Shown: positions 11,583 to 12,297 of the stretch, one piece after another | Layout: each line of letters opens with the position of its first letter | Position numbering within the stretch: the first letter of the stretch is position 1 | IMG/VR virus record: IMGVR_UViG_2728369591_000008 | Coordinates: 1-16,498 of that record | Source of the DNA: a virus | Taxonomy: Duplodnaviria > Heunggongvirae > Uroviricota > Caudoviricetes | Direction: 5' to 3' (one strand) | DNA length: 16,498 bases | The notes under the pieces: generated by a model | What the model saw: the letters and a program-made list of their open reading frames with translations, nothing else | Database searches by the model: none | Told to the model about the DNA's origin: nothing | Program-made: the position numbers and the translations under genes

Positions 11583-11860
11583 TTAACAAGTTATTATCAT
11601 GGGGTTTGTGGCTGTTAACCTGCAGTGAGGCGACAATCGTGTATTTATAAAAACTTCCCCTTTTCACTCCCCGCTGTTTCTTCTGCTATTGCCTTTATGT
11701 TTGCATGCACCAACATCTGCCATACCTTTGCAGAAAAATCAGAGCATTCAGTGCCGAAGGTTGGTTTATTGATGCTTTTCGTTTCATTTATTGCAATTGT
11801 CTCTGGTATCATTTCAATTTGTGCAATAATTGCAATTATTGTCATTCAGAAGGGATCATC

Positions 11861-12028
11861 ATGAAAAATCACGGAGTAAAGCCAGTTTTACTTTCCCGGA
11901 GGCAGATCGAAGCCCTGCAACGCATCCAGGACGAAGAGCGTCAGAAATCTGTGCTTGGTGTGGCACCGTCGATTCATGTTACTGCCCGGCAACTGATGGA
12001 TAAGGCACTTAAAGAGGTGAGGCTGTGA
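11861..12028 (+). CDS. Small hypothetical protein (55 aa)
   Basis: RBS AAGGGA 11846..11851 before ATG 11861; its stop overlaps the next gene's GTG start. Confidence 0.45.
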   Translation: MKNHGVKPVLLSRRQIEALQRIQDEERQKSVLGVAPSIHVTARQLMDKALKEVRL

Positions 12029-12297
12029 AATTAAATATCAGAGTGGATAAACGCCAGCTATGGCAGAAAAAAGAGAACAGCGAGGCATTCAGGGCTTTGC
12101 TGGTGGAAAATCTTCGGCACCGGTTCAGTGGAGAGTTGCCAGATGCACTGGGGAAGAAACTGGAATCCCTGACAGTGGAAATTGGCGATTATGGCTTTGT
12201 TGATGTTGAAAGCACGACTGCCAACACAGAAATCGTAAAACAGGTCGTCAATGATGTAATGAAAACCACGCTTAGCCAGCCATCCTGGCGCAACTGA
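12025..12297 (+). CDS. Hypothetical protein (90 aa, GTG start)
   Basis: Strong RBS AAGAGGTGAGG just upstream of GTG 12025; GTGA overlap with the upstream stop. Confidence 0.55.
   Translation: MKLNIRVDKRQLWQKKENSEAFRALLVENLRHRFSGELPDALGKKLESLTVEIGDYGFVDVESTTANTEIVKQVVNDVMKTTLSQPSWRN

Follow-up and report, generated by a model that had tools for sequence, protein, structure and literature searches.

The segment at 11772-11860 of the 16,498-nt window (the whole stretch of DNA analyzed here) is probably not a gene. We read it, with a probability of roughly 0.6, as the autoregulated promoter and operator region of a late packaging/interference operon in a PICI-type satellite that lies next to a tRNA-Gly gene. 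This reading is carried by the anatomy and conservation of two operator-like sites, O1 and O2, by their linkage to a 55-aa gene whose product is modeled with a ribbon-helix-helix (RHH) fold, and by the lack of a coding signature in the segment itself. An earlier note on the same DNA had offered two readings, a small membrane peptide and a palindromic operator.

Gene content identifies the window as a PICI-type phage satellite in E. coli. As expected of such islands, which measure about 10 to 15 kb, it has a tRNA-adjacent integrase, AlpA, a primase/replication module and no capsid, tail or lysis genes; no structural or lysis families were found among the window ORFs scanned. AntA and DUF4222 genes lie between AlpA and the primase. 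PerC is followed by a 380-aa lipoprotein-like gene, a 107-aa membrane-protein gene, the interval under study and the 55-aa gene, beyond which come a 90-aa gene, a 175/181-aa HTH gene, a 59-aa ORF and DUF4747 cargo at the island end (Table 1). This layout matches Gram-negative PICIs as published in the portions of PMC6092414, PMC6739421 and PMC11773190 available to us. Helper-phage induction and packaging have been demonstrated for other islands, EcCICFT073 and EcCIMP1, according to the available text of PMC6739421 and PMC11773190. Lambda-type cosN (GGGCGGCGACCT, up to 2 mismatches) is absent from the window, which thus lacks this mark of a lambda-like cos site region.

The 1.2 kb around the segment occur as 100% identical copies in several E. 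coli chromosomes and are present in 132 of 5,426 complete genomes, and the 55-aa, 90-aa and 175-aa genes are all annotated as hypothetical in RefSeq. A megablast search of the phage collection gave no match, and an Rfam scan of 11000-13000 returned nothing but a sub-threshold chance match to a snoRNA. We gathered about 100 related loci by drawing on E. coli and GTDB genomes, IMG/VR and metagenomes; together these loci provide 59 distinct upstream regions. Homology between island types starts at about 11772-11781, which places the first two thirds of the 79-aa ORF in another module than its hydrophobic tail, namely the inserted lipoprotein/TM cargo.

Table 1. Features of the window, numbered from its first base
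Feature	Position	Strand	Remark
tRNA-Gly(ccc)	835-908		
Integrase	1033-2286		
AlpA	3407-3604		
Primase	6915-8720		
ProQ/FinO	9092-9634		
PerC	9631-9918		
79-aa ORF, 30-aa hydrophobic tail from ATG 11772	11625..11864	+	judged not a gene
66-aa ORF, PGAP WP_024189479.1	11645..11845	-	judged spurious
O1, distal operator-like site, TTTCATTTATTGCAA	11782..11796	.	exact TTKC-N7-GMAA
O2, proximal operator-like site, TTTCAATTTGTGCAA	11812..11826	.	occupies -35/-10 spacer, abuts -10 element
Candidate extended -10, TGC-AATAAT	11822..11830	+	read from sequence
18-bp palindrome	11824..11841	.	two 9-bp units, CAATAATTG and CAATTATTG; lineage-specific
Shine-Dalgarno-like AAGGGA of 55-aa gene	11850..11855	+	AGGAGG or GGGGG at this position elsewhere
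55-aa gene, predicted RHH fold	11861..12028	+	first of operon, proposed autoregulator
90-aa gene, predicted beta-alpha-beta-beta-alpha fold	12025..12297	+	
175-aa protein (181 aa from ATG 12379)	12397..12924	+	N-terminal HTH_17/small-terminase-like HTH

O1 and O2 are 15-bp pseudo-palindromes (ATTKCA-N5-TGMAAT) with a spacing of exactly 30 bp, and nothing else in the 16.5-kb window matches TTKC-N7-GMAA or TTKCA-N5-TGMAA exactly. Both are kept in about 20 lineages from Escherichia, Citrobacter, Pantoea/Mixta-type genomes, Serratia and unassigned viral contigs, and 20 representative lineages align from O1 to O2 without an indel between the sites. The orientation of the sites flips independently between lineages: O2 is the reverse complement, TTGC-N7-GAAA, in lineages L056, L068 and L019 and symmetric (TTGC-N7-GCAA) in L055, while O1 is inverted in L058 and L063. 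Such flipping would be expected of a binding site for a two-fold symmetric protein. Neither coding sequence nor -35/-10 hexamers could flip in this way, so O1 and O2 behave as protein-binding sites. Among the E. coli variants, SNPs affect the N7 stretches and the bases between the sites but never the TTTC or GCAA cores. Where O2 is gone altogether, through a 39-bp deletion in L016 and L046, the RHH gene carries a stop codon.

We also tabulated the presence and absence of genes over the loci. ProQ, PerC, the 90-aa gene and the 181-aa HTH gene can each be absent where the sites are present; among the tabulated genes, only the RHH gene is a constant neighbor of O1 and O2, most flanks being too short to take in alpA. 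Scanning IMG/VR for O1-N15-O2 gave 108 matches, 42 of them linked to an RHH gene (40 by a scripted pattern, with L146 and L147 added by eye); the rest are unrelated, the pattern being loose at 18 bases, and the scan is accordingly given no weight. No covariation of RHH strand residues with half-site variants was seen by eye.

Promoter signals accompany the sites. A perfect TATAAT stands 2 nt after O2 in most non-E. coli lineages, followed by an AGGAGG-type ribosome-binding site and then ATG. The window lineage has a poor -10, AATAAT, and lacks a recognizable -35; transcription would start at about 11837. A consensus scan of the window and of three related loci (L004, L009 and L056) found no full sigma-70 promoter because the -35 is weak everywhere, and a weak -35 fits a regulated promoter. 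These three loci have intrinsic terminators shortly before O1, so the operon needs its own promoter; in the window no terminator was found between the 107-aa gene and O1 (11582-11772), so read-through transcription is possible there. In five lineages a perfect putative LexA box, CTGT-N8-ACAG, follows the -10 and precedes the ribosome-binding site. An exact LexA box is absent from the window, whose six 1-mismatch matches all lie away from the 55-aa promoter; the box has been lost from the E. coli lineages, window included. An attenuator or riboswitch was considered and rejected, as RNA folding of 11772-11875 is no more stable than that of shuffled sequences (z +0.79).

The 18-bp palindrome that had drawn attention to this region exists as described: read directly, CAATAATTGCAATTATTG at 11824-11841 is perfect, and it is the only perfect palindrome of at least 16 bp in the window. 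Palindromes of at least 18 bp occurred in 157 of 2,000 dinucleotide-preserving shuffles of the whole window (7.9%), so it is weakly unusual by length alone; shuffles of the 89-bp T-rich segment alone reached such a palindrome 15 times in 20,000. The window sequence here reads TGCAATAAT, TGCAATTAT and TG in succession, two units of a 9-bp repeat that duplicates O2's right half-site. Because the 9-mer CAATWATTG is symmetric in itself, a pair of units whose center bases are complementary gives a perfect 18-mer. The palindrome is confined to window-type sequences, and in all other lineages the longest perfect palindrome measures 6 to 12 bp. The repeat tract is unstable, with three units in L032, an O2 spacer converted to the 9-bp repeat in L036 and L025, and the 39 bp of L016 and L046 lost between copies of ATTGCAATT. 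The palindrome is accordingly a by-product particular to this lineage, and it contributes at most a third, overlapping quasi-site (GTGC-N7-GCAA at 11821-11835, one mismatch). The earlier proposal of an operator for an autoregulated pair was thus right in kind, but the candidate operator is O1/O2, of which the palindrome only overlaps O2, and the likely partner is the 55-aa gene alone: the right half of the palindrome has no conservation outside the window lineage, and the 90-aa gene is absent from many site-bearing lineages.

In its AlphaFold model (pLDDT 83), the 55-aa protein begins with an extended segment that leads into two helices, and this beta-alpha-alpha arrangement of strand and helices can be superimposed on known RHH domains, which establishes an RHH fold at the level of the model. 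Its family, which matches nothing in Pfam, comprises 23 clusters from Escherichia, Citrobacter, Pantoea, Mixta, Winslowiella and also Serratia. None of 19 family members matched an RHH Pfam family, even at E≤10, and PDB RHH sequences did not match the family profile. With the sequence VKPVLLS, the predicted beta-strand is more hydrophobic than is usual where an RHH strand contacts bases. RHH proteins bind repeated DNA sites as dimers with an intersubunit beta-sheet, and pseudo-symmetric repeated sites adjoin the gene. RgdR, a small regulator said to occur in all E. coli PICIs, was rejected as the identity of this protein, being 99 aa long and encoded elsewhere in the island (PMC3378721). The available portions of the Gram-negative PICI papers PMC6092414, PMC6739421 and PMC11773190 contain no account of the 55-aa gene, the 90-aa gene or the operators that go with them.

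The 90-aa gene overlaps the 55-aa gene by GTGA, through which the two would be translationally coupled, and its clear purifying selection (substitutions 1/1/15 on codon positions 1/2/3) indicates a real gene. Nine relatives were found among 1.8 billion representative proteins. The structure model (pLDDT 76, built on 8 sequences) has a weakly DinI-like fold. DinI is a RecA modulator whose acidic helix is the RecA contact; the 90-aa protein lacks sequence signal to it (hhalign probability 0.3%, E 0.24; Pfam DinI unmatched) and its C-terminal helix is not acidic, and we treat DinI as a fold analogue only. LRR-like matches of the 90-aa profile (LxGELPxxLG) were set aside as a motif coincidence with plant LRR repeats.

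A weak hairpin separates the 90-aa gene from the 175-aa HTH gene. The product of the latter matches the terminase small subunit family phrog_57 (E 1.8e-6) over its N-terminus only, its HTH resembles both small terminases and excisionases, and its relatives are all unnamed; the gene probably serves packaging or regulation within this module. Sequence comparison with solved Rpp or TerS structures gave no match, and an identity as Rpp was rejected, with the solved RppC unmatched and RppA and RppC measuring 144 and 153 aa. PADLOC found no defense-system match for the small proteins. The payloads downstream of the sites vary between lineages, from the 90-aa gene with the 181-aa HTH gene to a DUF2213 protease-like gene, to tape measure, tail fiber and baseplate hub genes, or to P22-type ejection proteins.

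From the linkage and the modeled fold, we infer that the 55-aa RHH protein binds O1 and O2 and that it represses the operon. The two sites, 30 bp apart, would lie on roughly the same helix face, O2 in the -35/-10 spacer and overlapping the -10, O1 about three helical turns upstream. RHH dimers would occupy the four half-sites, giving repression and negative autoregulation of an operon that would consist of the 55-aa gene, the coupled 90-aa gene and, past the weak hairpin, the 175-aa HTH gene. The LexA box of several other lineages, between the -10 and the ribosome-binding site, would add SOS control as a second lock. Both features that first stood out would be by-products, the palindrome of two 9-bp units copying the right half of O2 and the hydrophobic ORF of T-rich operator DNA.

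The 79-aa ORF that contains this segment starts at GTG 11625, has an internal ATG at 11772 and stops at 11862-11864. As the earlier note had it, the 30 C-terminal residues from ATG 11772 (MLFVSFIAIVSGIISICAIIAIIVIQKGSS) are nearly all hydrophobic, and the stop overlaps the start of the 55-aa gene as ATGA, the ATG of the latter lying at 11861-11863 rather than beginning at 11862. A transmembrane segment is predicted (mean Kyte-Doolittle 3.1 over 19 residues) and is explained by T-rich DNA. The stretch 11772-11860 has 31% G+C and T at 39 of its 89 + strand bases, a composition that alone makes one frame hydrophobic. Only the window lineage and L003 have a canonical start in the ORF frame; L004, L005, L008, L009-L012 and L015 lack one. 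Relative to the 55-aa ATG, the ORF stop stands at +1, +17, +38 or -20 in different lineages, or there is none. A hydrophobic + strand ORF is found in 23 of the 59 upstream regions, nearly all of them from two closely related E. coli lineages, and in one of these it is open only because it begins within perC, in a different reading frame, and continues across the terminator of perC; 17 of the 59 lack any + strand ORF of at least 20 aa across the segment.

We counted substitutions in 11625-11860 by codon position over six E. coli variants. They fall 5/6/4 on positions 1/2/3 of the + frame, against 1/1/15 in the neighboring 90-aa gene. The commonest variant changes Ser to Asp inside the predicted transmembrane stretch, and natural deletions have removed 10 bp in L024 (11704-11713) and the 39 bp in L016 and L046. 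Purifying selection on the ORF, as third-position excess or indels in threes, is not seen among the E. coli variants, nor are the start codon and frame of 11772-11864 conserved among relatives. By these measures the hydrophobic + strand ORF does not behave like a gene. The small, toxin-like membrane peptide co-translated with its neighbors, which the earlier note had entertained, fails on its unconserved start, stop and frame, its unbiased codon positions, the indels and the Ser-to-Asp change.

We therefore consider it very unlikely that the ORF from ATG 11772 is a translated, young, lineage-specific single-pass membrane peptide or leader of 30 aa, with the ATGA overlap coupling its translation to that of the 55-aa gene. 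The intact ORF of the window lineage, with its ATG and ATGA overlap, and its hydrophobicity of 3.1 over 19 residues speak for such a peptide, as do the open hydrophobic frame that divergent E. coli and Citrobacter lineages keep across O2, the ATG-ATG start that L003 has of its own, and the lack of a terminator at 11582-11772, so that the ORF could lie on a read-through mRNA. Against these stand the scarcity of canonical starts, the variable stop and frame, the even codon positions, the Ser-to-Asp variant and the L016 deletion; moreover, ATG 11772 has no good Shine-Dalgarno sequence upstream, the proposed transcription start lies downstream of it, and the conserved bases form a DNA-site pattern of flipping orientation that coding constraint cannot explain. 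Still less credible is the RefSeq-annotated minus-strand 66-aa ORF (11845-11645) as the real gene of the interval. PGAP calls it in window-type genomes (WP_024189479.1 and variants), but it is absent from every non-window lineage, the interval is without an annotated CDS in L003, L004, L005, L017 and L018, its substitutions fall 6/5/4 on the codon positions, and the 10-bp deletion of L024 shifts its frame, with no PGAP call there. It has no family match and, judged by these patterns, does not behave like a gene. Two annotations are thereby corrected, a spurious minus-strand RefSeq CDS and a tempting hydrophobic ORF, and the latter illustrates that T-rich operator DNA can translate into convincing-looking "membrane peptides." A small RHH gene that overlaps a downstream gene, with an operator upstream, is also the arrangement of ParD/ParE- or CopG/RelE-type modules, and the overlap of the 55-aa gene with a gene of about 90 aa, the operator-like region upstream and the conservation of the pair in E. 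coli and Serratia could be taken for a type II toxin-antitoxin module in which the palindrome serves as operator. This, too, is highly improbable: the RHH core has no toxin-binding tail, the downstream partner differs between lineages, and no toxin fold or family was found.

The main rival accepts O1 and O2 as real and assigns them to another factor, the AlpA activator/antiterminator, PerC or a helper-phage protein, so that the 55-aa RHH protein would serve another purpose, such as binding other DNA or a protein of the helper. We regard this as unlikely, though clearly less so than the alternatives above. O2 fills the -35/-10 spacer, which is where Q-like or MerR-like activators sit, PerC is immediately upstream in many lineages, and the RHH strand is atypically hydrophobic. 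AlpA is encoded in the window, and in Gram-negative PICIs it acts as master activator of the lytic genes, according to the available text of PMC6092414 and PMC11773190. However, AlpA activates its own promoter (PMC6092414, in the part available), and the window has nothing like O1 or O2 in front of alpA. No PerC could be detected in L019/L020, L056, L059, L060 and L069, all of which keep the sites. The loss of PerC and the site-free alpA promoter both count against another factor at the sites, and the RHH gene alone always adjoins them.

Autoregulated RHH repressors with operators over their own promoters are well known, among them Arc and Mnt of P22, plasmid CopG, Omega of pSM19035, and TraM and TraY of F-like plasmids. 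Compared with these, the 55-aa protein has no detectable sequence relation to RHH Pfam families, its beta-strand is unusually hydrophobic, and its candidate operators lie 30 bp apart and flip orientation independently. An RHH autoregulator would be an ordinary mechanism; the RHH-headed satellite operon itself has not previously been described and is of modest interest for satellite biology. If the proposed switch works, it names the cis and trans control of the packaging/interference operon in widespread satellites of E. coli, Citrobacter, Pantoea and Serratia. The available portions of the PICI papers PMC6092414, PMC6739421 and PMC11773190 give no account of how this module is regulated in Gram-negative PICIs.

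A close parallel is operon I (packaging/interference) of the SaPIs of Staphylococcus aureus, which is LexA controlled (Ubeda et al. 2007, as cited in the available part of PMC6092414). Like operon I, the operon described here lies downstream of a primase/ori module and heads packaging/interference genes, and five related lineages have the perfect putative LexA box; unlike operon I, the window has none, and in the enterobacterial islands an RHH gene and two candidate operators, not known from SaPIs, come in addition. We tentatively suggest that an RHH protein and a two-operator promoter, joined by a LexA box in several lineages, could form a common late-operon gate across enterobacterial PICI-type satellites, and that such a gate may perhaps be previously undescribed. 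If it is indeed common, it would be to Gram-negative satellites what the LexA-controlled operon I is to SaPIs, and it would set the expression timing of HTH/TerS-like, tape-measure/baseplate or P22-type ejection payloads. Unlike EcCICFT073 and EcCIMP1, the window has no lambda-type cosN, and its 175-aa HTH protein is unmatched to the solved RppC. It resembles EcCICFT073 (which has the Rpp system) and EcCIMP1, as far as the available text of PMC6739421 and PMC11773190 describes them, in its integrase, AlpA, primase, PerC, small-gene module and variable cargo, and L056-type relatives carry P22-type DNA-transfer genes like EcCIMP1_017-019.

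Behind the promoter of the operon headed by the 55-aa ribbon-helix-helix (RHH) gene, which lies downstream of the operator-like sites O1 and O2, related islands of other lineages carry different genes. Locus L067 has genes for a tape measure protein, a tail fiber, a virion structural protein, and a baseplate hub behind a candidate RHH/operator promoter, and locus L056 has P22-type ejection or "DNA transfer" proteins in the same arrangement, the latter similar to EcCIMP1_017-019 (PMC11773190). The helper-like virion genes of both loci are driven by the same predicted RHH/operator promoter as that of the window.

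In the RHH operon of five lineages, a perfect LexA-box sequence, CTGT-N8-ACAG, lies between the -10 element and the ribosome-binding site. The window and the other E. coli lineages are without a perfect box at this operon. About 10 nt upstream of O1, the motif cGATCgaa[a]tttA is conserved in non-E. coli lineages, often with GATC present twice, and may represent either a Dam/SeqA site or an additional binding site.

In the window lineage, two genes separate perC from the operators, one for a 380-aa lipoprotein-like protein and one for a 107-aa membrane protein. Both are missing from L004-type islands, where the perC terminator adjoins O1, and Pantoea-type islands encode a 379-aa homolog of the 380-aa protein (61 to 62% identity) at the same location. 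The two genes look like moron-type cargo. The variable end of the island, which encodes a DUF4747 protein and a 199-aa protein in the window, looks like a satellite defense hotspot. In related islands, other cargo takes the place of this pair: a DNA methyltransferase with DUF262 and a HEPN nuclease, a SIR2 protein, an AAA protein with an S8 protease, or a Schlafen-like ATPase; the DUF4747 and 199-aa pair of the window has no PADLOC match.

Features of the window and of related island loci (L-numbers), with their coordinates
Feature	Position	Remark
380-aa lipoprotein-like gene and 107-aa membrane-protein gene	window 10053-11582	between perC and operators in window lineage
66-aa CDS	window 11645-11845 (-)	RefSeq/PGAP annotation
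90-aa gene	window 12025-12297	
Hairpin	window 12306-12325	between 90-aa gene and 175-aa HTH gene
DUF4747 protein and 199-aa protein	window 13675-15167	variable end of island
Virion genes	L067:4174-8146	behind candidate promoter
Ejection/"DNA transfer" proteins	L056:4155-7609	behind candidate promoter
LexA box	L019:4804-4819	perfect sequence match
LexA box	L056 about 3957-3972	perfect sequence match
LexA box	L055, L058/L063, L013/L061: -25 to -32 from RHH ATG	perfect sequence match
GATC-containing motif	L009:3897-3917	equivalent position in L013, L054, L055, L067-L074
Decaying copy with O2 deletion	L016:1781-1830	also L046

The 66-aa CDS annotated across the operator region (WP_024189479.1) shows neither conservation nor codon-position bias, and a natural 10-bp deletion destroys its ORF. 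It is probably a spurious call. The motif hRhxGELPxxLGK causes the profile of the 90-aa family to match plant LRR receptor kinases; the sharing of this short motif is coincidental and does not reflect homology.

Downstream of the 90-aa gene, a GGGGC-GGTTATT-GCCCC hairpin is followed by TTT. Its possible role is that of a weak terminator or attenuator, which would leave the third gene (175-aa HTH) partly uncoupled; the terminator scan made no call for it.

Finally, L016 (E. coli SCU-316) and L046 each represent a decaying copy. O2 has been lost there through a 39-bp deletion between the two ATTGCAATT repeats, and the RHH gene, which PGAP leaves unannotated, has acquired a premature stop (CAA to TAA).
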